The notes beneath the pieces are model-generated. The model was given only the letters and a program-made list of their open reading frames with translations, ran no database searches and was not told the origin of the DNA. A stretch of 64,000 nucleotides of DNA from an uncultured Gammaproteobacteria bacterium (GTDB lineage Bacteria > Patescibacteriota > Patescibacteriia > Magasanikbacterales > UBA922): positions 8,919-72,918 of the forward strand of contig CAYUTO010000003.1 of the NCBI GenBank assembly GCA_964447765.1, written 5' to 3'. Made by a program: the position numbers and the translations under genes. Of the stretch, positions 2,658 to 64,000 are shown piece after piece. Every line of letters begins with the position of its first letter. The first letter of the stretch is position 1.

Positions 2658-3293
2658 TTATATGGTCTTATATGCAGTAATCATTTCTTGATACACTTTT
2701 TCCATTCTTTTCACCACGCCTGGGTTTTCCAAATAGGTATTTATTTTTTCTTCAATTAAAGACACAAGATTATTTTCTACACCTAGCTCTGTCCACAGAC
2801 TCGCAACCTCTTTTGGAGTAAGGCTCTTTTTATCTTTGTAGAGTCGTTGAATTATTTGGTTAAACTTTGTTACATCTTCGAGTCGTTCACTATTTGGGTT
2901 TTCCACATATTCCAGAAGAGGTAGATATGGCTGTATATCAAATTCCTTCATCACTAGAATTTCCTGCAACCCCTTCAATGCTGATACTCGTATCCACCAC
3001 TCACTCTTCCCACCTCCATGCTCGACACCTTCTAAACAATCAGGGAAAATCTGGTGAAATAATGTATTCTGCACTTTGTCGCATAACGCATGCACTGACC
3101 AGCCTTTTTTGAAATCGGTTGTAAGAAACTCTTGTGAGAGAAGTTCTTCAAAATGAGTTTTTTCTCTATCAATCCCTGAAATATAGCGACTATCAGGATA
3201 CGATGTACCCGCCACATACGCAGCAATATTTTTAATATCGTATACATCTTTTATATCGAGAGCGAATTTTATGTGAGTTGCGGCAAGTGCCAT
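2658..3293 (-). CDS. Hypothetical protein (211 aa), last gene of the glycolytic gene cluster
   Basis: Long ORF in the native low-GC codon style. I recognise no motif in it. Confidence 0.55.
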   Translation of the reverse strand: MALAATHIKFALDIKDVYDIKNIAAYVAGTSYPDSRYISGIDREKTHFEELLSQEFLTTDFKKGWSVHALCDKVQNTLFHQIFPDCLEGVEHGGGKSEWWIRVSALKGLQEILVMKEFDIQPYLPLLEYVENPNSERLEDVTKFNQIIQRLYKDKKSLTPKEVASLWTELGVENNLVSLIEEKINTYLENPGVVKRMEKVYQEMITAYKTI

Positions 3294-3307: not shown

Positions 3308-4885
3308 TTATACCAAACTTCTTCCCGTCATTTCTTTTGGCTGTTCAATACCAAGAATTGAGAGTACGGTGGGAGCAACATCAGCCAAGATTCCAACGGG
3401 GTGCATGAGACTCAAATCTCCTTCTGGAGGGTCTCCGGTAGGCCCCGCCCTACCCTGGAATTCATTACCAATAATCAGAAATGGCACTGGATTATTACTA
3501 TGCTCTTTGTCCTGTTCGCCTGTTTTCAAATTAATAACTTCTTCGGCATTTCCATGATCTGCAGTAATCAAAAGCACCCCACCTTTTGCTTCGACATATT
3601 CGGCGATTTTTCCTAAATTTTTATCAATGGTTTCGCATCCTTTGATAGTAGCATCTACATTCCCCGTATGCCCCACCATATCAGCATTTGCAAAGTTCGC
3701 CAAAATCACATCATATTTATCAGACTCAATCGCTTGAATTATTTTTTTGGTTACTTCTGCCGCAGACATTTCTGGTGCTTTATCATATGAAGAAACATTA
3801 GGAGAAGGGACAATCGCCCGATCCTCACCAACAAACGGCTCTTCCACCGTACCATTCAAGAAAAAAGTGATATGCGCGTATTTTTCGGTTTCTGCAACAT
3901 GAAATTGAGTAAGCCCCTGCTTGCTTATCACTTCAGCAAGACAATTGTGCACCACAATTGGTGGATATGCTACTACGACTGGAATTTCTTTTTCATATTC
4001 AGTCAGAGTGACAAACAATAAATCGGTGAGATATTCACGTTTGAATTTATCAAATCCAGGCAAGACAAAAGCTTTCGTTAATTGTCGTGCTCGATCAGGT
4101 CGAAAATTGAAAAAAATTACCGCATCACCTTTTGCAACTCGTGCCGTAGGCTTTCCTTCTTTTCCAATCACCGTTGGTATAAATTCTTCATCAAATACTT
4201 GCTTCTCATACGAAGCCTCGATTGCATCAAGCGGATGTTTGCTGTAGGTCTCTGAAATTCCTTCGACCATGGCACGATATGCACGCTCAATACGATCCCA
4301 TCGGTTGTCACGGTCCATTGCATAATAGCGACCAGACAACGACGCAATTTCTCCCACTCCAATTTTTTTCATTTTTTCTTCGAGTTTAGCAACAAAATCT
4401 TTTGCACTATTATAAATAGTATCTCTCCCGTCGAGAATCACATGTACAAACACATTCTTAATTTTATTTTTCTTTGCAAATTCAAGGAGGGAGTACAGGT
4501 GATCCTGACTTGCATGCACGTTTCCCGGACTCACCAACCCAATCAAATGCAGTGATGATTTATGAGTCGCCACGTGCTCTTTTGCCGATAAGAATGCTTT
4601 ATTTTGAAAAAAACTACCGTCCACAATAGTCTTATTAATGCGAGGAAATGTCTGATAATACACGCGTCCCGCTCCGATATTCAAATGTCCTACTTCTGAA
4701 TTTCCCATTTCTCCATAGGAAAGTCCCACTTCATTTCCAGAAGCATAGAGTGACATTGCAGGATATTCTCGTATAAAACGATCCATATTGGGAGTCTCTG
4801 CGCGTTCAATCGCATTACCCTCACTTGCAGGTGCTACTCCCCACCCATCGAGAACGGCAAGTACTACTGGTTTTGGTCGAGCCAT
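3308..4885 (-). CDS. gpmI: 2,3-bisphosphoglycerate-independent phosphoglycerate mutase (iPGM), copy 1
   Basis: 525 aa; VLDGWG near the N-terminus, GNSEVGHLNIGAGR (catalytic Ser region), ITADHGNAEE metal-binding motif. Confidence 0.9.
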   Translation of the reverse strand: MARPKPVVLAVLDGWGVAPASEGNAIERAETPNMDRFIREYPAMSLYASGNEVGLSYGEMGNSEVGHLNIGAGRVYYQTFPRINKTIVDGSFFQNKAFLSAKEHVATHKSSLHLIGLVSPGNVHASQDHLYSLLEFAKKNKIKNVFVHVILDGRDTIYNSAKDFVAKLEEKMKKIGVGEIASLSGRYYAMDRDNRWDRIERAYRAMVEGISETYSKHPLDAIEASYEKQVFDEEFIPTVIGKEGKPTARVAKGDAVIFFNFRPDRARQLTKAFVLPGFDKFKREYLTDLLFVTLTEYEKEIPVVVAYPPIVVHNCLAEVISKQGLTQFHVAETEKYAHITFFLNGTVEEPFVGEDRAIVPSPNVSSYDKAPEMSAAEVTKKIIQAIESDKYDVILANFANADMVGHTGNVDATIKGCETIDKNLGKIAEYVEAKGGVLLITADHGNAEEVINLKTGEQDKEHSNNPVPFLIIGNEFQGRAGPTGDPPEGDLSLMHPVGILADVAPTVLSILGIEQPKEMTGRSLV

Positions 4886-4889
4886 ACAT

Positions 4890-6470
4890 TTAGAATAAAG
4901 GTTTACCAGTCATTTCTTTTGGCTGCTTACCCCCGACCATTTTAATAATCGTTGGTGCCACATCAGCTAGTATCCCATCTTGTAACTTTTTTCCTTTTAA
5001 TCCGTTACGAATCACTATACAAGGCACTGGATTCAAGTTGTGCTCAGTATCTATCTCTCCTGTTTTCAAATTTTTCATTTCTTCGGCGTTTCCATGGTCT
5101 GCGACAATTAACGCTTGCCCACCTTTCGCGAGCGCTGCTGCGACCACTTCTCCTACATGAGCATCCATCACACTAACACCTTTTTTTGCTGCCTTCAGAT
5201 TTCCGGTATGTCCTATCATGTCAGCATTAGCATAATTGATACAATAAAACTGATACTTATCACTCTTCATTAATGCTAATACTTTTTTGGTGATTTCTTT
5301 TGCTGACATTTCAGGCTTAGTATCATGATGTGCAACTGTTTTTGATTCTATTTTAATCCAATCTTCACCATTGACCGGCTCCGAATAGCCCCCATTAATA
5401 AAATAGGTCACATGAGCATATTTCTCAGATTCTGCGATATATACTTGTGTAAAATCTGAAAGAGCCAAGGGAAGCGTATTATAGACTTCAGGTGAGGGAA
5501 ACACGGTGAGGATACGCTCCAGATCAGGTCCAAAATCGGTAAGCGCTACAAATCTGATATTTTTAGGAACTTTTACTCTTTTGAAAGACCCCGGATTTCG
5601 TTTATTAAAATCATCTTGAACAAATGCTTTGGTAATCTGACGAGCCCGGTCTGACCTCGCATTAAAAAATATAACCACGTCATGATCAGCAATCGAAGCT
5701 ACGGGTTTTCCTTTTTCATCCACCACGATCGAGGGAGTAATAAATTCATCAGTCTCTCCCCGATTATATGCCTGCTCGAGCGCTTCTTCGGCACTCCTCA
5801 CTTTGTGCCCCATGCCCATGACCATTGCTTCATACGCGGCTTCGGTCCGGTCCCATATTTTATTTCGATCCATACCATACAATCTTCCCATGATGGTTGC
5901 AATCTTTTCAGTATGCAGCATATGCCCCCGCAATTCATGGAGATAGTTGGCAGCAGCATGTGGTCCTGAGTCTCGACCATCAGTAAACAGATGCAAATAT
6001 ACTCGTTCAATTCCTTCTCTACGGCAGAGCTCAAGAAGTGCATAGACATGCTCGGGATACGAATGCGCACTATTACCATCAGTCAGGAGTCCCATGAGGT
6101 GCACTGCTGATTTGTATTTTTTAACATGGAATAATGCTTGCTTGAATGCTTCATTTTTGAAGAAAGTTCCATCATGAATCGAATCTGAAATACACACTAA
6201 ATCCTGCTTCACAATTCTTCCCGCTCCAATATTCAAATGCCCTGCCTCAGAATTTCCAATCTGTCCCGGAAAAAGCCCTACATGCTCGCCAAAAGTTTTC
6301 AACTTTGAAGTAGGATATTTTTTCATATACCCAAAAATATTGGGTGCAGTTTTTGACGTAATTGCATTCCCTTCATTTTTTTCAGGCGCAACACCAAAAC
6401 CATCAAGAATAATGAGTACGGTGGGAGATGGTGTTGTGATCAAAGATTTTTTTTGTTTTTTAATTGGCAT
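4890..6470 (-). CDS. gpmI: 2,3-bisphosphoglycerate-independent phosphoglycerate mutase (iPGM), divergent tandem paralog with a Lys-rich N-terminal extension
   Basis: 526 aa; ILDGFG, GNSEAGHLNIGAGR, IVADHGNAEE. Catalytic Ser and metal ligands are retained, but it is clearly diverged from the adjacent copy. Confidence 0.85.
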   Translation of the reverse strand: MPIKKQKKSLITTPSPTVLIILDGFGVAPEKNEGNAITSKTAPNIFGYMKKYPTSKLKTFGEHVGLFPGQIGNSEAGHLNIGAGRIVKQDLVCISDSIHDGTFFKNEAFKQALFHVKKYKSAVHLMGLLTDGNSAHSYPEHVYALLELCRREGIERVYLHLFTDGRDSGPHAAANYLHELRGHMLHTEKIATIMGRLYGMDRNKIWDRTEAAYEAMVMGMGHKVRSAEEALEQAYNRGETDEFITPSIVVDEKGKPVASIADHDVVIFFNARSDRARQITKAFVQDDFNKRNPGSFKRVKVPKNIRFVALTDFGPDLERILTVFPSPEVYNTLPLALSDFTQVYIAESEKYAHVTYFINGGYSEPVNGEDWIKIESKTVAHHDTKPEMSAKEITKKVLALMKSDKYQFYCINYANADMIGHTGNLKAAKKGVSVMDAHVGEVVAAALAKGGQALIVADHGNAEEMKNLKTGEIDTEHNLNPVPCIVIRNGLKGKKLQDGILADVAPTIIKMVGGKQPKEMTGKPLF

Positions 6471-7881: not shown

Positions 7882-8778
7882 TTATTTGAGTTCAAAGGTG
7901 ACTCCCACATGAAGGACTATGTCATTAGTACCTGCTTCAATCTGTGGAACACTACTACCTGCCTGAAGTTCCATATCATACATTTTTGCTCCGTAATATG
8001 ACTCATTTGAACCTTCATATTCATCGTATGACACGATGCCTGAAAGTCTGAGACCTAGATTACTTGAAAGTGCCGCAGCCTTTTGACTTACTTTTTTCAA
8101 AGCCTCTGCTCGAGCAGCCTCGAGATACGCATCTTTATCGTCAATCGTGAATTCAAGTCCACTTACATTGGTTGCACCTACTTCACCTGCAAGTCCAAGC
8201 ACTTGATTTGCCTTATTCAAATCTCTAATCTTGATGGTGACATTTTGACTAATCGTGTATCCACGAAGTTCAGGTGTACCTCCATCAACTGGATAGTTGT
8301 ATGCAGGATACACACTATAATCTCTCGTTTGGATATCAGCCGCATCAATTTCCAACTCTTTGATTCTACTTACCAATTTGTTTACTACTTCAGTATTTTT
8401 CTGTTGAGCCTCAGCTACAGTAGCAGCTTCAGTTGTCATACCCATCGTAGTCATGGCAATATCAGGCTTCACGCTTACTTTTCCTTCAGCCTCGACTCTA
8501 ATAGTTCTCTCCGACTTGTCTGCTTGACCAATAAAGTCGTATTTTCGTACTTCGTTTCTAATAAGAACCCCAAAGAATACGATTAGATATACGATCAAAA
8601 TTCCAACAAATGTTGCTAAAATCTTTTTTCCTACCCAACCACACCAACTATGCTGGTCACATTTTCCATATTTACAGCAACTCATCGGATGTTCTGCTTC
8701 GACTACTGGAGGAGACGACACGACCGGCGCCATTGGCTCGTCCATCATAGGGCGAGCAAATGATTTTTTGACAGGCAT
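7882..8778 (-). CDS. SIMPL/DUF541-domain protein (YggE-like) with an N-terminal Cys-rich segment and a TM anchor
   Basis: 298 aa; N-terminal CCKYGKCDQHSWCGW followed by a hydrophobic helix; the C-terminal ~220 aa has SIMPL-like composition with the typical GYTISQNVTI.. and ..IEAG.. motifs. Confidence 0.65.
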   Translation of the reverse strand: MPVKKSFARPMMDEPMAPVVSSPPVVEAEHPMSCCKYGKCDQHSWCGWVGKKILATFVGILIVYLIVFFGVLIRNEVRKYDFIGQADKSERTIRVEAEGKVSVKPDIAMTTMGMTTEAATVAEAQQKNTEVVNKLVSRIKELEIDAADIQTRDYSVYPAYNYPVDGGTPELRGYTISQNVTIKIRDLNKANQVLGLAGEVGATNVSGLEFTIDDKDAYLEAARAEALKKVSQKAAALSSNLGLRLSGIVSYDEYEGSNESYYGAKMYDMELQAGSSVPQIEAGTNDIVLHVGVTFELK

Positions 8779-8972
8779 ATTTTACAAAGGTAATCACGTA
8801 ACGTTTGTGTAAACAAACTACGCGAATAAATAAAAGTATAAAAAAACTTGATGCGTGAAGTATAGCACAAAATAACTTTTTATTCTGTAATACTCTGTGG
8901 ATAGGTCGGGATTTATTAAAAAATAAAGATTGAAAATTAAAATTACAATTTTTTATTTCCTAATTTTGCATT

Positions 8973-45628: not shown

Positions 45629-46432
45629 CCTATAAATGACGAAGCCGACGCGAGGGAACTCCCAAGCGTCGGCATGATTGTGGTCTATTGCGCCAACAGT
45701 GCCGAATTGCACCATCGTAGCACAAGATCGTTGAATTATCTCAGTACTCGTACCGTCCAAGACTAAGGAACCATGTGTTTTGATGCAGCTCACCTTCACA
45801 GACACCCACCTGGAAGGTTCGAACAGCTCCAGTGGTGAGTGGATCTCCTGGATGAGGACATCCTGGATGCATGAAGCCGAAGATGTTGCGGATATTTCCA
45901 CTCATGACGGTCACGTCCAGGCTATCGATCCACCGGAATTCCTGAAGCTCAGCATCCGTATAGAACTCGAGGAGCGCAGCCAGATGGTTGAACCCAGCGT
46001 GCCGCAGACCGAGCCGATTCCGAATGAACAACGCTTCTTCGAGAGTAGCTTTACGACCGAGCCTGAACAGCACCACCTTCTCCTTGATCGACTCGTAATC
46101 CCTCCCTTTGGTGTGCACGAGGAAATCATTGAGCTTGTTGACCGGCAGATTCAGATCGCAGTAGCCGCACTTGCTTGCAACAAGCCATTCCTCAGCAGTC
46201 CGCTTCGGGTAGATAGTGACTTCGAACGTGCGCTCCTCGACGTCCCTCAGGCACTGCAGCAGACTTTCCACCTCTTCTGGATTCTCGATCCACTTCTGTG
46301 CGATGGTTGCCGACAGGTCAGTCGGCAATTTCCTCACGAGCGTGGCCGAAAGCTCCTGAAGCTGAGCTCTGCTCGCGAATTTTCTTTTTCTCATTCATTC
46401 TCTCCTTGGCTACCTTTTGGTGCAATTTCTTG
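45629..46432 (-). mobile_element. GC-rich (~55%) inserted cassette bounded by inverted AATTGCACC / GGTGCAATT termini
   Basis: Abrupt GC shift. Plus strand reads CAGTGCCGAATTGCACC at 45697..45713 and GGTGCAATTT at 46419..46428. A 3' hairpin GCCGACGC..GCGTCGGC at 45644..45673 is followed on the minus strand by TTCGTCATTTATAGG. Confidence 0.45.
45741..46394 (-). CDS. Hypothetical protein (217 aa) of the GC-rich cassette; apparent fusion of the alphaCTD-protein N-module and domain X
   Basis: Strong SD AAGGAGAG upstream; the protein is plausibly folded, whereas the mirror plus-strand ORF is not; by-eye similarity to the products of 62223..62657 (N-terminus) and 62874..63413 (the remainder). Confidence 0.6.
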   Translation of the reverse strand: MRKRKFASRAQLQELSATLVRKLPTDLSATIAQKWIENPEEVESLLQCLRDVEERTFEVTIYPKRTAEEWLVASKCGYCDLNLPVNKLNDFLVHTKGRDYESIKEKVVLFRLGRKATLEEALFIRNRLGLRHAGFNHLAALLEFYTDAELQEFRWIDSLDVTVMSGNIRNIFGFMHPGCPHPGDPLTTGAVRTFQVGVCEGELHQNTWFLSLGRYEY

Positions 46433-46589
46433 ACCGCAGGCTGACCATAGAATCGCGACGGGTAAGGCACTTCCTCACCTTCTTTCTAACTTATTAGAAA
46501 ATAATTCAAAAAGAAAGCCAGGAAATCCAAATCGACAATAGGCTAAAATACCATACCGTGCCACTTTTGTCAATCATCGCTTATCCAAA

Positions 46590-46624
46590 ACAAAAAACCA
46601 TGCTTCATCAGCACGGTTTTTTGT
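46590..46624 (+). terminator. Orphan hairpin plus T-run between the GC cassette and the antiporter gene
   Basis: AACCATGC-ttcatca-GCACGGTTTTTTG with one mismatch in the stem. Confidence 0.3.
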
Positions 46625-56883: not shown

Positions 56884-58056
56884 TTACGATGCTTTTTCTT
56901 CAGCTGAGGTTTCTTCTTTTTTCTCCTCAGTCTTTTCCTCTACCTTTTTCTCTTCTTTTTTCTCTTCACGCTTCTTTACTCCTTCAAGTCGGAGTCCGAG
57001 GCGGTGTTCAGCAGGTTCGATAGAGATGATTTCAAAGTTATATGGTTTTCCGATTTCAAACTTGACCAATAATTCTTTTGGATCTGCCACACGCTTCTCT
57101 GAAAGATCAGAGATGTGAGCAAGTCCATGGATTTCATTGTCGAGCTTGACCATGAGACCAAATGATTCAACTTTGTGTACTTCTCCTTTTACTACTTGTC
57201 CGATCGTATATTTCTCTTTTACTGATTTCCATGGATCGTCGACAAGGCGCTTCAGTGAGAGGTATATTTTTGATTTATTGAGGTCGATAATCTGGGCTTT
57301 TACCTTGTCACCCGCTTTCAAAATGTCTTTAGGGTGATCAATTCTCTGCCACACGATTTCTGAGATGTGCACCAATCCTTCCAGTCCTTCGCCAAATTTC
57401 ACGAATGCTCCGAATGGTGTAAGCGCTGATACTTCACCCTCGATCTTGTCTCCTACTTTGTAAGAATCAAGGATGTTTTTCTGTTCTTCTTCCCATACTT
57501 CTTTTTCAGAGAAGATCAACTTTTCATCATCAACATTTGCATCAAGTACTTTTACCTTGATTGTCGTTCCAACAAATTTCTTTAAGTGTTCCAAAATTCT
57601 ATTTTTGTCTCCACCTTGTACACGTGGATAATTATCAGGATTCAATTGAGACACAGGCATAAATCCAGTCAAAGCGTCTGCCTGAAGCATAAGACCACCT
57701 TTGTTTGCTTGGATGATCTTTGCCTTGATAACCGTTCCTTCTTTGACATACTTTGCCATGCGTTCCCAGACGAGTCTGTGTCCGGCTACACGGAATGATA
57801 ATTCCATTTCACCATTTTCATTTTCGTCTTCAACAACGGTTGCCTCTACTTCGTCGCCGATTTTGATATTCGAGAACTCTTTTGATTCACTAAACAATTC
57901 TTCTCCACGCACGACACCAATAATGATGCCATTGATGTCAACTCGGACTTCACCTCGACCAATCGAGATAACGCGTCCTTTGACCAAATCGTTCACTTGA
58001 GGGATCTGGGCAAAATACTCTTTTAATAATTCTTCAAAATTCTGTGTTTGTGACAT
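56884..58056 (-). CDS. rpsA: 30S ribosomal protein S1 with a Lys/Glu-rich C-terminal tail
   Basis: 390 aa; four S1 repeats (G..V.G.V pattern) and a KKEEKKVEEKTEEKKEE tail. Confidence 0.85.
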   Translation of the reverse strand: MSQTQNFEELLKEYFAQIPQVNDLVKGRVISIGRGEVRVDINGIIIGVVRGEELFSESKEFSNIKIGDEVEATVVEDENENGEMELSFRVAGHRLVWERMAKYVKEGTVIKAKIIQANKGGLMLQADALTGFMPVSQLNPDNYPRVQGGDKNRILEHLKKFVGTTIKVKVLDANVDDEKLIFSEKEVWEEEQKNILDSYKVGDKIEGEVSALTPFGAFVKFGEGLEGLVHISEIVWQRIDHPKDILKAGDKVKAQIIDLNKSKIYLSLKRLVDDPWKSVKEKYTIGQVVKGEVHKVESFGLMVKLDNEIHGLAHISDLSEKRVADPKELLVKFEIGKPYNFEIISIEPAEHRLGLRLEGVKKREEKKEEKKVEEKTEEKKEETSAEEKAS

Positions 58057-59562: not shown

Positions 59563-62097
59563 TTGCATATGATCAAAAAAGATACCAACGATACAAAAGG
59601 ACAGGCCCCACGCGCAATTCAACCTAGTCTGACTGATGGAAAAATTGAAACAATCAATCTGGTTGACGAGATGCGAACCTCCTACCTTGATTATGCGATG
59701 AGTGTCATCGTTGCTCGTGCTCTCCCTGATGTGCGCGATGGTTTCAAACCCGTACATCGACGTATTCTCTACGCCATGTGGGGCATCGGATTGAAGCATA
59801 GTGCTAAGTTCAAAAAATCAGCACACGTGGTCGGAGACGTAATGGGTAAATACCATCCTCATGGAGACTTAGCGATCTACGATTCTTTGGTACGTATGGC
59901 CCAGGAATTCAATATGCGCCACATGCTCGTACATGGACAAGGAAACTTTGGTTCTATGGACGGAGATAGTGCGGCTGCGATGCGTTATACCGAGGTAAAA
60001 CTTCGAGCGCTTGCAGAAGAAATGCTTCTTGATATTGATAAAAATACCGTAGACTTTACTCCTACCTACGACGGAAGTCACAAAGAACCTCGAGTGCTCC
60101 CAAGCAAATTCCCAAACTTACTTTTGAACGGTAGTATGGGTATTGCGGTCGGAATGGCGACAAATATTCCTCCACATAATCTAGGAGAACTTTGCGATGG
60201 AATTTCTGCGCTCATCGCAGACCCTGCAATCACGATCGAACAATTGGTTGAACATATCAAAGGACCTGATTTTCCAACCGGCGGAATCATCTACAACAAA
60301 CAAGACATTCTTGCAGCATATGCGACTGGACGAGGAGGAATCGTGATGCGCGCAAAGACTGATATTGTCGAACTTGCAGGAGACCGATTCAATATTATTG
60401 TCTCTGAAGTTCCCTATCAGGTAAACAAAGCAACTTTGATTGAAAAAATTGCAACACTCGTTCAAGAGAAAAAACTTGAAGGAATCAAAGATTTGCGTGA
60501 TGAATCAAACAAAGATGGAGTTCGTATTGTGATTGAGCTTAAAAAAGATTCATACCCAAAGAAAGTCTTGAACCGTTTGTTCAAGATGACTGAGCTCCAG
60601 ACCACCTTCCACGTAAACATGTTGGCGCTCGTTGATGGAATCCAGCCACGCGTACTTAATTTGAAAACAGTGCTTGAAGAATTTATCAAGCATCGTCAAG
60701 TAATCATTCGACGACGAACTGAATTTGATCTTGAAAAAGCCAAAGATCGCGCACATATTCTTGAAGGTTTGAAAAAAGCGCTTGATAAAATCGATTTGAT
60801 TATTGCAACGATCCGTAAATCAAAAGATAAAGATGAGGCAAAAGTAAACCTCATGGGAAAGTTTGATTTTACCGAGAGACAGACAGTGGCGATCCTCGAA
60901 ATGCGATTGCAGCAGCTGGCGAATCTTGAGAGACAAAAAATCGAAGACGAGCTCAAGGAAAAAATGAAACTTATTGCAGAGCTTGAATCTATTTTGAAGA
61001 GTGCCACCAAAATATTGAATATTATCAAAGATGAAGTTACTGAAATCCGTGAACGATTTGCAGAAGAGCGACGAACCAAAATTATTCAACACGGAATCAA
61101 AGAATTTTCTATTGAAGATTTGGTACCAAACGAACCAACTCTTATCCTCTCGACTGTAGACGGATATATCAAACGTCTTCCTTCTGACACATTCAAACAG
61201 CAGGGTCGTGGTGGCAAAGGAGTGATGGGACTCACTACCAAAGAAGAAGACGTAGTGGATCATATTATTTCAACAAATACACATGATTTCATCCTATTCT
61301 TCACCACACGTGGACGCGTGTTCCAATTGACCGCATACGAAATTCCACAAGGATCTCGTACTGCCAAAGGTCAGGCTCTCGTAAATTTCCTCCAGCTTGC
61401 GCCTAATGAAAAAGTGTCGACTATTCTTTCTATGAGCGACATGACCAAGTATGAATATCTGATCATGTTAACAAACAAAGGAACGATTAAGAAAACTAGA
61501 CTTGATGATTTCAAAAATGTTCGACGATCAGGCCTCATCGCTTTGAAACTCAAAGAAGACGACATGCTTGAATGGGTACGCCCATCAACGGGAAGTAACG
61601 ATGTAATTACCGTGACGAGCCAAGGTCAAGCAATCCGTTTCCAAGAAAAAGAAATTCGCGCCATGGGCCGAACTGCAAGTGGAGTTCGTGCAATCAAACT
61701 CAAATCAAATGATGTGGTTGTCGGAATGGATGTAGTATCTGCTGACCTCGTAAAGAAAAAAGTACTTGAGCTCCTCGTTATTTCTGAAAAAGGAATGGGT
61801 AAACGCACCAGTATTACTGAATATAAAGTACAAGGTCGTGGTGGAAGTGGAATTAAAACTATGGCAATTACGGATAAGACTGGACGCATCATGAGTGCAC
61901 GAGTAGTCAATAATACTGAAACTCAAGATCTCATGATTATCTCAGTGAAAGGACAGGTTATCCGCACTCCAATCAAAACTATCTCAACTCTTGGACGTGC
62001 AACACAAGGAGTACGCATCATGCGATTCAAACAAGAGGGTGACAAAGTTGCAAGTCTTGCAGTACTTGAAGCAGATAAAGAAGATGTAGAAGCGTAA
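59563..62097 (+). CDS. gyrA: DNA gyrase subunit A
   Basis: 844 aa; AAMRYTE active-site Tyr region; QRDR-like HPHGD; C-terminal beta-pinwheel repeats. Confidence 0.95.
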
Positions 62098-62112
62098 ATT
62101 ACACAAGTAAAT

Positions 62113-62147
62113 TAAAAACACCTCTCCGATTCGGAGAGGTGTTTTTA
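62113..62147 (+). terminator. Intrinsic terminator of gyrA
   Basis: ACACCTCTCCGA-t-TCGGAGAGGTGTTTTT. Confidence 0.75.
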
Positions 62148-62158
62148 GTATTGAGGGA

Positions 62159-62187
62159 TTGACAAAAGCAGACTTCTATGGTAAAAA
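62159..62187 (+). promoter_or_regulatory. Sigma70-like promoter ATTGACAAAA-17-TAAAAA of GC cassette gene 1
   Basis: TTGACA at 62159..62164; SD AAGGAGG at 62209..62215. Confidence 0.4.
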
Positions 62188-62222
62188 CCTTAGCTGCCCA
62201 AACAAACAAAGGAGGTAGTAGC

Positions 62223-62657
62223 ATGGACGCTGAACAATACCAGAAACTCGCGCTCGCGGTGATGGCTGCAATCCCAATGGATCTCGACAGCCAGATCGCC
62301 GATGGGTGGATCCGAGACCCGCTCGGCCTAACCGTCGCGATGCGCCAGGCACTGGCCCCAGGAAAACAGGATCAGGAGTGGAAGCCCCATCTCTTCGAGA
62401 AACTCGATAGACGTATCGTCGACCTCCCTGGACTCACTGGCCGTGCTCGTAATTCACTTCTCGGTGAAAATAGAGACAAAGAACATCGTATCACCTACGT
62501 CGGACAGTTGGTACAAATGCGTAAAGTGAAACTCTCCTGTCTGTGGAATTTTGGAAATCACTCTCTCAAAAACGTGACCCAAGTCCTAGCTGAACTCGGA
62601 CTGGAGCTCGATATGGACGTACAAGGCTGGGTACCGCCTGAGCAGCGGAACCTGTAG
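62223..62657 (+). CDS. Standalone RNA polymerase alpha-subunit C-terminal-domain (alphaCTD)-like protein, GC-rich
   Basis: ATG with a canonical SD; residues ~65-144 align with the E. coli alphaCTD (DLPGLTGRARNSLL.. vs DLELTVRSANCLK; YVGQLVQ vs YIGDLVQ; NFGNHSL vs NLGKKSL; VLAELGLEL vs VLASRGLSL; QGWVPPE vs ENWPPA); the N-terminal ~60 aa are a separate module. Confidence 0.7.
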   Translation: MDAEQYQKLALAVMAAIPMDLDSQIADGWIRDPLGLTVAMRQALAPGKQDQEWKPHLFEKLDRRIVDLPGLTGRARNSLLGENRDKEHRITYVGQLVQMRKVKLSCLWNFGNHSLKNVTQVLAELGLELDMDVQGWVPPEQRNL

Positions 62658-62689
62658 AGTCGATTCCTCGGATCGACTCTCAAAATACG

Positions 62690-62750
62690 GACTCTCGCGC
62701 TACGGCGGTGCAATTCGGCACTGACAGCACGAGAGTCTTCTTCATTTTTA
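62690..62750 (+). repeat. Conserved cassette 3' element: hairpin GACTCTCG..CGAGAGTC containing GGTGCAATTCGGCACTG, then TTCTTCATTTTTA
   Basis: The 17-mer is identical to the rc of 45697..45713; the hairpin plus TTCTTCATTTTTA is repeated at 63422..63472. Confidence 0.6.
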
Positions 62751-62795
62751 GATAATCTAAAACCACTCGATAAGGGTGGTTTTTTATTTTAATGA

Positions 62796-62823
62796 TTGAC
62801 AAAAAATATATATGAGTTAGTAT
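62796..62823 (+). promoter_or_regulatory. Sigma70-like promoter ATTGACAAAA-16/17-TAGTAT of GC cassette gene 2
   Basis: TTGACA at 62796..62801 (the track ORF's TTG start lies inside it). Confidence 0.4.
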
Positions 62824-62873
62824 TCTCTCCAATACAGTCAACGCATAGTGCTATGACTGAACAGAGAGGTAAC

Positions 62874-63413
62874 ATGCACGTTCAAGTTAATCTAAGCCAG
62901 CTCACTCCACACAAAATCGAGCTGCGCGATGACCAGGTCAGGATCCACCCAAATCTCTCCGTCGAGGAGTGGTCCAAGTACGCGAACCTTTACATGACCC
63001 ACTGCAACGACGACTTCACGAACGAAAGGTTCACCAAATACCTTCGTGAACCTTCGAGTACTGAGGTCGTGAGAACCATCCGCCGCTTCCGTGCGGGGAG
63101 AGGTACTGGGTACACGGTCGAGTGGGCCCGGTCTGTGCGTGAAGCTCTCAACCTCGACCCTACTGGGTTCGAGCACATAGCAGCCTTCGCCAACCAGCAC
63201 TTCAGAATCTGGTGGAATCTCGCGCGCGAGTGGGTCTTCTCCCCGGATCTGATCTCGATGGAAATCCCCAACTCGCTCGACAAAAACAAGCCCACAATGA
63301 TCGGCATCGGGGGCAACATCGAAGCACGCCACTTTTCCGTTACACCCCTCGAGAAGTTCAATGGGTATGTGTGGTTCTGCGGTCTCGTGAAGGCCGAACC
63401 CACCACGTCCTAG
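62874..63413 (+). CDS. Hypothetical GC-rich protein (domain X), paralog of the C-terminal part of 45741..46394
   Basis: ATG at 62874 with SD GAGAGG (alternative ATG at 62853); shared blocks RIHPNLSVEEW / TIYPKRTAEEW and LNLDPTGFEHIAAF / LGLRHAGFNHLAAL. Confidence 0.55.
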   Translation: MHVQVNLSQLTPHKIELRDDQVRIHPNLSVEEWSKYANLYMTHCNDDFTNERFTKYLREPSSTEVVRTIRRFRAGRGTGYTVEWARSVREALNLDPTGFEHIAAFANQHFRIWWNLAREWVFSPDLISMEIPNSLDKNKPTMIGIGGNIEARHFSVTPLEKFNGYVWFCGLVKAEPTTS

Positions 63414-63421
63414 GGCGCAAC

Positions 63422-63472
63422 AAGACTCTCTGCACGACACTAAGTACGGCACGAGAGTCTTCTTCATTTTTA
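63422..63472 (+). repeat. Second copy of the cassette 3' element (AAGACTCTC..CGGCAC..GAGAGTCTT CTTCATTTTTA)
   Basis: Direct comparison with 62690..62750. Confidence 0.55.
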
Positions 63473-63481
63473 AACTAAAAA

Positions 63482-63512
63482 AATAATCCTCCAGTTCGGA
63501 GGATTATTTTAA
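63482..63512. terminator. Bidirectional intrinsic terminator (ruvA / cassette)
   Basis: AATAATCCTCC-agttc-GGAGGATTATTTT. Confidence 0.7.
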
Positions 63513-63524
63513 TGTACGAAATAA

Positions 63525-64000
63525 TTAACGCTTTCTCGATAACACTTCTTTCAAGATTTCTGCAGCACTTTTTCCTTCTCCTTCAATATTTTGAAGCATA
63601 TCCCTCGACTCCTCCTTAGTATACCCCATGGAGATAAGTCCCTCAACCACATCGTCAAGTACTCCATCCACGGGTTTTGAGCGGACCGAAACTCTCGTAC
63701 CCAGATCAATTTTACTTTTTAACTCAACAACTAATCGCTCTGCTGTTTTCTTTCCCATACCTTGAATTGAGGTGAGATATCCTACATCTCCTCTCGCAAT
63801 TGCATCTCGTATATCTTCGACTGAACCAAGCGACATAATATTCATGGCACTTTTCGGCCCAATTCCAGATACGGTCATGAGAAGCATAAAGAAGTCTCGA
63901 TCTTCAAGATGCGAAAATCCAAATAATTCCTGACTATTCTCACTCACTTTATGATAGATAAAGAGTGATACAGGAACTCCGGTATTTAATTCAAGAAGTT
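63525..64000 (-). CDS. ruvA: Holliday junction branch-migration protein RuvA (C-terminal part in the window; N-terminus beyond window end)
   Basis: HhH pair MLLMTVSGIGPKSAMNIM... and a C-terminal domain III (EALISLGYTKEE-like, here EGLISMGYTKEE); the frame stays open to position 64000. Confidence 0.85.
   Translation of the reverse strand, partial: LLELNTGVPVSLFIYHKVSENSQELFGFSHLEDRDFFMLLMTVSGIGPKSAMNIMSLGSVEDIRDAIARGDVGYLTSIQGMGKKTAERLVVELKSKIDLGTRVSVRSKPVDGVLDDVVEGLISMGYTKEESRDMLQNIEGEGKSAAEILKEVLSRKR

Follow-up and report, generated by a model that had tools for sequence, protein, structure and literature searches.

The DNA analysed here, hereafter the window, comprises 64,000 nucleotides (nt) of contig CAYUTO010000003.1 (assembly GCA_964447765.1, forward-strand positions 8,919 to 72,918) from an uncultured bacterium placed in the Magasanikbacterales, a tiny-genome member of Candidatus Magasanikbacteria (Parcubacteria, candidate phyla radiation). 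Near its right end, between gyrA and ruvA, lie two short GC-rich genes. Gene 1 encodes a protein of 144 amino acids (aa) ending in a homolog of the C-terminal domain of the RNA polymerase alpha subunit (alpha-CTD), and gene 2 encodes a 179-aa protein of a family designated here as X. With a third gene elsewhere they make up three autonomous single-gene expression units in the window, each insulated by terminators on both sides. We rate the finding as a known domain, a PF03118 member that is not RpoA, set in a new modular architecture and carried in an unusual expression unit. The gap between gyrA and ruvA contains the following features:

62113..62147, no strand assigned: gyrA terminator, a perfect 17-bp inverted repeat and left boundary of the alpha-CTD unit (inverted-repeat search)
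62159..62187, plus strand: gene 1 promoter with TTGACA at 62159-62164, a 17-nt spacer and the extended -10 element TGgTAAAAA; 100% identical in L001, a locus of a relative described below
62209..62216, plus strand: gene 1 Shine-Dalgarno (SD) sequence AAGGAGGT, 6 nt before the ATG (read from the sequence)
62223..62657, plus strand: gene 1, N-terminal module and alpha-CTD-like domain, 144 aa (open reading frame (ORF), PF03118 and PDB matches)
62226..62363, plus strand: N-terminal helical module, residues 2-47 of gene 1 (hhalign, local hidden Markov model (HMM))
62397..62642, plus strand: alpha-CTD-like domain, residues 59-140 (PF03118 over residues 59-124; PDB alignments reach residue 140)
62656..62680, plus strand: short hairpin right after the gene 1 stop codon (folding)
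62689..62750, plus strand: gene 1 3' element, a two-tier hairpin with the inner hairpin GGTGCAATTCGGCAC, then TCTTCTTCATTTTTA (folding, repeats)
62759..62783, plus strand: canonical intrinsic terminator, left boundary of the gene 2 unit
62796..62823, plus strand: gene 2 promoter, TTGACA, 16-nt spacer and TAGTAT, 10 of 12 matches
62864..62870, plus strand: gene 2 SD, GAGAGGT
62874..63413, plus strand: gene 2, X-family protein without the N-terminal module, 179 aa (homologs, family HMM)
63422..63472, plus strand: gene 2 3' element, a hairpin then TCTTCTTCATTTTTA (repeats, folding)
63480..63510, no strand assigned: bidirectional terminator common to the gene 2 unit and the convergent ruvA

UP elements and class I activators dock chiefly on the alpha-CTD. 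The gene 1 product matched PF03118 with 30.2 bits (E = 3.8e-7, residues 59-124; Pfam cut-off 23.8), and its orthologs P0002 and P0010 likewise exceeded the cut-off with 37.8 and 30.0 bits. A phmmer search retrieved 26 alpha chains from the PDB, the best being 9zum_A (E = 1.8e-8) and 7ye1_A (E = 3.4e-8), with the E. coli alpha-CTD chains at about 1e-6 (1coo_A, E = 9.7e-7). PF03118 was the sole Pfam match, and neither RNA_pol_L nor RNA_pol_A_bac, the alpha N-terminal domain, was found in gene 1. The sequence-only reading, an earlier interpretation of this DNA, had described gene 1 as an alpha-CTD homolog detached from any alpha N-terminal domain, and this description holds. The gene also lies outside the ribosomal-protein operon that contains rpoA; its neighbours are gyrA and ruvA, and it possesses a separate promoter and separate terminators. 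A search of the accessible literature, incomplete in its coverage and hence weak as evidence, revealed no description of a free-standing alpha-CTD protein.

For a comparison at the residue level, gene 1 was aligned with what we take to be the sequence of E. coli alpha 249-329, in which R265, N268, N294, G296, K298, S299 and E302 are presumably the UP-element residues; the match of this sequence to gene 1 agreed with the PDB hits. Equivalents of R265, N268, N294, G296 and S299 are kept in gene 1, while K298 is replaced by H and E302 by N. The gene 1 tail LDMDVQGWVPPE aligned with E. coli LGMRLENWPP, placing GWVPPE opposite NWPP, so that the arginine at the R265 position and the GWVPPE tail noted in the sequence-only reading were both recovered. 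A 5-residue insertion follows the first helix-hairpin-helix, and two of the three orthologs carry an insertion of 5-9 residues. Invariant across the orthologs are the helix YVGQ(L/I)VQ and the tail LDMxVQGW(V/I)PP. The likeness to the alpha-CTD of RpoA thus comprises significant profile and solved-chain matches over about 80 residues, the five retained residues and a conserved tail of the GLxLxMxxxxWPP type. The differences are equally clear: the dimerisation/assembly domain is missing and an unrelated 45-residue module stands in its place, the gene has its own promoter, and its nonsynonymous divergence (dN) is about 30 times that of gyrA.

The N-terminal module links the two protein families, a connection that the sequence-only reading had not noted. 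Comparison of the N-termini of the alpha-CTD family and the X family by hhalign gave a probability of 95.5% (E = 1.6e-8), residues 2-47 of the alpha-CTD protein aligning with residues 8-52 of most X proteins in the common pattern QLxxLxxxLxxxLPxDLxxxxAQxWIxxPxxLxxxL. The gene 1 module matched the local HMM with E = 2.9e-19, a value to be read with the fact that gene 1 helped to build this HMM. X-family members occur with and without the module, gene 2 being one of those without. As the module is common to both families and absent from some X members, we describe them as one modular family in which a common module is combined with either the alpha-CTD or X. The products are small, apparently cytoplasmic proteins, in which a module of about 45 residues, putatively of three helices, is joined to an alpha-CTD-like cargo or to an X cargo of about 160 residues; no signal peptide was apparent on inspection of the cassette proteins and no secretion domain was recognised in them. 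A PDB profile search returned no sequence relative of the module. Its derivation from the end of the RpoA N-terminal domain or from the RpoA linker, hinted at by a long phmmer alignment, was rejected, as the module showed no similarity to full-length RpoA. No further ORFs with the module or with X were present in the window or at the related loci.

Gene 2 had been described as lacking a recognisable family, and Pfam and PHROG indeed gave no match for it. Its start was corrected from 62875 to 62874, in the frame that it shares with the ORF 62796-63413. Relatives were nevertheless detectable: gene 2 is 31% identical to a 208-aa protein of L001 (E = 1e-19), and it shows a mutual weak tblastn match to the protein of the third cassette (E ≈ 3e-4; 32% identity when aligned). 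A profile search for X among 1.84 billion cluster representatives yielded 27 proteins at E ≤ 1e-3. Their lengths range from 122 to 240 aa, the lone exception being a 455-aa repeat protein which looks spurious, and their conserved motifs are (V/L)TI(Y/D)PxRTxEEW, GFEHxAA and a C-terminal WF(L/C)GL. Gene 2 matched the family HMM with E = 1.5e-44, having itself contributed to it. Profile searches of the X family against Pfam, NCBIfam, PADLOC and the PDB gave no match; in the PADLOC scan, which covered 26 X-family members and did not include gene 1, the best value was E = 0.02 for a single member, and tblastn of phage and plasmid records returned no phage match for the family.

Gene 2 is affected by an annotation error, since public gene calls place the gene on the wrong one of the two strands. 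Gene calling on L072, a Logan assembly of the same locus, picks a 191-aa ORF on the minus strand (window 62892-63467; L072 2885-3460) over gene 2, and the public protein collection consequently lacks the gene 2 product. The plus-strand frame is real, because it has homologs, matches the family HMM and shows a ratio of nonsynonymous to synonymous divergence (dN/dS) below 1. On a further, candidate-phyla-radiation-like contig, L068, the X gene is preceded at 2843-3196 by a gene for a 96-aa predicted membrane-anchored protein without a family match. Both genes share a GATTGACAT promoter, an arrangement suggestive of a unit variant with two genes.

All three units of the window are built alike. 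A terminator hairpin is followed by a GATTGACAAAA promoter with an extended -10 element, a conserved leader, a strong SD and an ORF rich in G+C at third codon positions (GC3); at the 3' end a long hairpin is followed by a tract rich in U, UCUUCUUCAUUUUUA in two units and UUCGUCAUUUAUA in the remaining one, and then by a second terminator. GATTGACAAAA occurs exactly three times in the 64 kb (62157, 62794, and 46565-46575 on the minus strand), each time before a GC-rich cassette ORF. From position 62114 on, within the gyrA terminator, the sequence is identical to the stretch preceding the alpha-CTD gene in L001. The third unit lies 16 kb from the gyrA–ruvA units, and a 99%-identical copy is found on the JGI contig L009:

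45640..45740, minus strand: third cassette 3' element, a hairpin with GGTGCAATTCGGCAC and a terminator hairpin, then TTCGTCATTTATA (folding)
45741..46394, minus strand: third cassette gene, N-terminal module and X domain, 217 aa (HMM, alignments)
46395..46624, minus strand: third cassette upstream region with a terminator hairpin at about 46592-46624, GATTGACAAAA at 46565-46575, TGgTATTTT, a leader of about 140 nt and the SD AAGGAG

The earlier claim that both gyrA–ruvA genes possess a -35 promoter, an SD and a shared 3' hairpin was thereby confirmed. That they form one joint cassette, as had been proposed, is not supported: terminator, promoter, SD and 3' hairpin are present separately for each gene, the gene order is reversed in L001 and L007, and, with the third unit at 45.6-46.6 kb, the supposed two-gene cassette amounts to two of three single-gene units. 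On L009, which is near-identical to the window, genes with a weak Baseplate_J hit and a YopX hit (4866-6005 and 8272-8721), possibly phage remnants, were observed a few kb from the third cassette.

The 3' elements share a 27-nt repeat of 96% identity (62724-62750 and 63446-63472) at the foot of the long hairpins, and the 18-mer GAGTCTTCTTCATTTTTA is present in two copies in the window, against 0.22 expected by chance. Relative to shuffled controls, the hairpins folded with z values of -6.3 (gene 1) and -3.7 (gene 2). In the outer stem 9 of 9 pairs are kept in all five sequences, four of them with compensatory changes, which reflect few independent events. The reverse complement of the 3' tail (62738-62750 and 63460-63472) reads AAAAATGAAGAAGACTCTCG, a typical start of a gene for a secreted protein (MKKTL…). 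A small minus-strand ORF with this start (ATG AAG AAG) was rejected in favour of the hairpin, because the changes in the stem are compensatory. Hits of CGAGRGTCTTCTTCATTTTTA in genome, metagenome and viral collections (L003-L005) were assigned to chance, L003 and L005 being MKKTL starts and L004 an unrelated sequence; the 56 hits of the inner hairpin GGTGCAATTCGGCAC in viral contigs were likewise at chance level, and none lay alongside the 3' tail. A scan of the window with Rfam gave a single tRNA above threshold and no credible match in the cassette region.

Leader blocks are conserved as well. An X-type leader, CTATGGTC.GC … CCAAAAG.TAGCCAAGGAGA, was observed at window positions 46395-46535 (minus strand), L001 700-823 and L007 9880-10000, and it is kept even though the proteins of these cassettes share no more than about 32-38% identity. 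Its predicted pairing lies partly over the SD, so that it may be a candidate for translational control; the folding energy is weak and four sequences were compared. The intrinsic terminators flanking the cassettes form a related family, AAAAAACC-N-GGTTTTTT, and the one upstream of the third cassette (46592-46624) is nearly the reverse complement of the terminator closing the array in L007 (11320-11352).

In their translation signals the cassettes stand apart from the genes around them. We scored an SD wherever AGGAG, GGAGG or GAGGT occurred 5-12 nt upstream of a start, counting every in-frame one among the first 50 codons. All three cassette genes carry one, compared to only 1 of 44 host genes, namely rpsA (56884-58056, minus strand, AAGGAG), which agrees with the previous remark that such sequences are rare elsewhere in this genome. 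The distant X genes of L067 and L068, likewise equipped with TTGACA promoters and terminal hairpins, retain CAAGGAGA as well.

The base composition is equally distinct. The gyrA stop codon lies at 62097, and behind the inverted repeat at 62113-62147 the GC content climbs from about 0.40 and reaches 0.52-0.58 over the stretch 62150-63450, falling again at about 63450; a jump at this place had been pointed out before. Only third codon positions carry the excess, GC2 of the cassette genes being ordinary. GC3 reaches 0.579 in gene 1 and 0.733 in gene 2, corresponding to z = 7.7 and 12.8 against a background of 36 neighbouring genes in the window (0.345±0.030, range 0.283-0.412). All seven cassette ORFs examined in the window and its relatives have GC3 values of 0.49-0.73, and X-family genes have about 0.52-0.56 GC irrespective of the GC content of their hosts. 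As GC3 is high despite saturated synonymous divergence between the genomes, it is maintained and not the fading trace of one recent transfer. Selection, biased gene conversion or continued replacement would each account for its maintenance.

Close homologs of the locus were found in three other assemblies only, GCA_018061425.1, GCA_964565405.1 and the Logan assembly L072, arranged as follows:

L001, L002, L006 and L071 (GCA_018061425.1, "Candidatus Magasanikbacteria bacterium"): gyrA – X (208 aa) – alpha-CTD (145 aa) – ruvA side
L007 and L008 (GCA_964565405.1): gyrA – X – alpha-CTD (136 aa) – ruvA
L072 (Logan): gyrA – alpha-CTD – X – ruvA, as in the window

The cassette ORFs are GC-rich in every genome compared, and the gene order in L001/L071 and in L007 is opposite to that of the window. 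In L071, three additional AT-rich genes (265, 137 and 73 aa; 3996-5554) lie between the alpha-CTD cassette and ruvA, marking the gyrA–ruvA gap as a variable hot spot. Recombinase, transposase and phage genes were absent within ±10 kb at L007, L009 and L071.

The cassette ORFs are under moderate purifying selection, yet they diverge far faster than the flanking core genes. Between the window and L001, gyrA shows a synonymous divergence (dS) of 0.44 and a dN of 0.008 (dN/dS 0.019), and the alpha gene a dS of 1.46 and a dN of 0.295 (dN/dS 0.20). Against its orthologs, the alpha gene gave dN/dS values of 0.20-0.27, the cassette ORFs overall 0.18-0.40. The alpha proteins of the window and L001 are 64% identical, and each is 42% identical to that of L007, a pattern that follows gyrA, ((window, L001), L007). 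For X the pattern is different: gene 2 shares 33-35% identity with the X genes that L001 and L007 carry at this locus, and those two are 65% identical to each other. From this we infer that in the window lineage a distant paralog has taken the place of the X gene and that the order was switched. Overall, strong constraint or homogenisation acts on the regulatory flanks, whereas the ORFs undergo divergence or exchange: in the comparison of the window with L001, identity is 100% over the 115-nt segment of terminator, promoter and leader and about 97% over the 3' element. Recombination between such repeated flanks is a plausible route by which units could be excised, reinserted and reordered.

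These properties invite comparison with known mobile and variable systems. Like integron cassettes, the units are short, tandem and composed of a single ORF with a conserved imperfect terminal hairpin, and their order and content vary between close relatives. Unlike them, they have their own promoter, SD and terminators, and one of them is solitary, at another place in the genome. The 3' hairpin also differs from attC, being near-perfect and two-tier without R/L boxes or a GTTRRRY core at the boundaries, and no integrase was found among the genes within ±10 kb of L007, L009 and L071, so that movement would need homologous recombination. With polymorphic effector or toxin families the cassettes share a constant N-terminal module with alternative C-terminal domains, rapid divergence and a variable locus, whereas the present proteins are much smaller and show no recognised trafficking or toxin domain, immunity gene or linked secretion system. 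Three further candidates were rejected. Separate promoters and terminators, the reversed order in relatives and solitary X genes spoke against a type II toxin-antitoxin pair. A diversity-generating retroelement target was dismissed after a sensitive blastn search of the three cassettes against the 64-kb window had returned only short 3' and terminator motifs; no reverse transcriptase was seen among the neighbours at the relatives' loci. A prophage or plasmid moron was discarded because tblastn of gene 1 against 50,697 phage and 72,556 plasmid records returned full-length rpoA only; PHROGs and BFVD gave nothing significant for the cassette proteins.

We tentatively read the cassette products, with a probability of roughly 0.45, as lineage-specific, rapidly evolving modular accessory proteins of Candidatus Magasanikbacteria (Parcubacteria, candidate phyla radiation), the alpha-CTD member probably acting as a mimic or competitor of alpha-CTD contacts. 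In the mechanism proposed, the gene 1 product would be a free alpha-CTD mimic that binds a partner of the polymerase alpha tail, such as an activator, sigma region 4 or A/T-rich DNA, and would modulate or titrate that contact. Through the shared N-terminal module, both types of cargo may be docked to the same partner or oligomer. Expression would be freed from the genomic context by the conserved flanks, which could also supply the homology for swapping cassettes by recombination. If this holds, bacterial transcription would be tuned or hijacked in a new way, by a free alpha-CTD coupled to a new module.

Several observations weigh against this reading. The residues of the E. coli 265 determinant are kept at 5 of 7 positions in gene 1, at 4 of 7 in P0002 and at 2 of 7 in P0010, which makes UP-element binding, one of the contacts at which the sequence-only reading let a free alpha-CTD compete, unlikely as a conserved function; nor do the orthologs conserve the residues by which E. 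coli alpha contacts activators and sigma, and in this variation of its DNA-binding and activator-contact residues the family again departs from RpoA. Judging from the sequences, the alpha-CTD proteins are therefore more likely to act through protein-protein contacts than through a conserved binding of UP elements. Structure prediction was of low confidence in both models obtained: an AlphaFold2 model built from a 2-sequence alignment was helical with a mean pLDDT (predicted local distance difference test) of 38.9, and a second AlphaFold model reached 51.0. As the domain belongs to the helix-hairpin-helix superfamily, it could serve in nucleic-acid binding alone. Furthermore, alpha and X genes are adjacent at the gyrA–ruvA locus only, the other X genes being solitary, and this reading does not account for the persistently high GC3.

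An artefact, that is a chimera, a contamination, chance ORFs in non-coding GC-rich DNA or the 191-aa minus-strand ORF as the true gene, is refuted. GC-rich DNA does yield long ORFs on both strands, and the public calls that prefer the minus strand, together with the absence of gene 2 from the protein collection, might have pointed in this direction. However, the possibility of a chimeric assembly, raised earlier for this region, is dispelled by L072, which is 100% identical to window positions 60008-64000 across both junctions, and by the same architecture in three other genomes; other genomes show it in assemblies from NCBI, JGI and Logan alike, and homologs of the plus-strand frames exist (27 cluster representatives), with dN/dS values below 1. 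A recent foreign island or mobile cassette (phage, plasmid or integron-like) from a donor of higher GC, with genes serving the element, would explain GC3 values 8-13 standard deviations above those of the host, a consensus sigma-70 promoter and an SD otherwise absent from the genome, repeated boundary elements around each ORF and a gene order that varies between strains. The ORF dS exceeding that of gyrA could likewise reflect import of diverged alleles, and the GC content of the X family, constant whatever that of the host, fits as well. Yet both families occupy the same gap where gyrA dS is saturated (1.7) and GC3 is still high, and the alpha-protein similarities track gyrA. Recent horizontal acquisition, assumed in the sequence-only reading, is accordingly at odds with a gap that is filled in at least three diverged Magasanikbacteria genomes with high GC kept, and with the third unit 16 kb away. 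Neither integrase, transposase nor phage gene was found near the relatives' loci, the phage and plasmid homologs are full-length rpoA only, and the 3' motifs gave chance hits only in viral, metagenome and genome collections; a location of homologs in prophages or plasmids, asked about in that reading, found no support in any recombinase, phage or plasmid link. With a 3' element ending in TCTTCTTCATTTTTA instead of a GTTRRRY integron core, and with its own promoter per cassette, the region is quite unlikely to be such an island.

A role in conflict is likewise unlikely. Under this explanation the alpha-CTD protein would serve in an arms race as a decoy or mimic that soaks up or senses phage factors directed at the alpha-CTD, or it would be an effector acting on transcription of the bacterium on which this episymbiont lives, with the N-terminal module serving delivery or signalling and X being another cargo. 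Very fast amino-acid divergence beside frozen flanks speaks for it, as do a constant N-terminus with a variable C-terminus, a variable hot-spot locus with the extra genes in L071 and expression signals unlike those of the host; moreover, the closest solved alpha-CTDs are proteobacterial. The idea is nonetheless entirely inferential, dN/dS values of 0.2-0.4 give no whole-gene signal of positive selection, PADLOC had no hit in the scan of the X family, and neither a signal peptide or recognised secretion domain nor adjacent defence or secretion genes at the relatives' loci were seen. In a broader and more improbable version, the cassettes would be a recombination-shuffled, insulated platform in Magasanikbacteria and related candidate-phyla-radiation bacteria, its signals, namely a consensus promoter, a strong SD and GC-rich codons, deliberately decoupled from an SD-less, AT-rich host, for fast-evolving modular conflict proteins, among them an alpha-CTD mimic or decoy directed against phage factors that target or recruit the alpha-CTD, or acting on transcription of the bacterium that carries the episymbiont. 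Rather unlikely, finally, is a generic (helix-hairpin-helix)2 nucleic-acid binder, for instance nucleoid- or repair-associated and unrelated to RNA polymerase. Weak secondary HHH_5 hits, the lack of conservation of UP-element determinants among orthologs and the neighbourhood of gyrA and of ruvA, whose product itself has helix-hairpin-helix domains, are compatible with it, but the alpha-CTD matches are by far the best, alone exceed the threshold and include the alpha-specific C-terminal LxMxxxxWPP tail. Also, the gyrA/ruvA neighbourhood is not operonic, with terminators on both sides, and a third cassette lies elsewhere.

Apart from the function of their products, the cassettes raise questions on translation initiation and codon-usage selection in candidate-phyla-radiation bacteria, being together with rpsA the sole SD genes in 64 kb and keeping about twice the GC3 of the host over long evolutionary times. 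The SD-poor host genes of the window fit the loss of the anti-SD reported for part of the Parcubacteria, in only 48% of which a published survey detected this motif (PMC9297842); the window itself has no rRNA gene. A parallel is offered by rpsU of Flavobacterium johnsoniae (PMC13000453): here, too, an SD-poor genome retains a handful of strong SDs, in our case those of rpsA and the three cassette genes. In Flavobacterium the exception is an autoregulated ribosomal protein gene, whereas the exceptions in the window include fast-evolving accessory genes.

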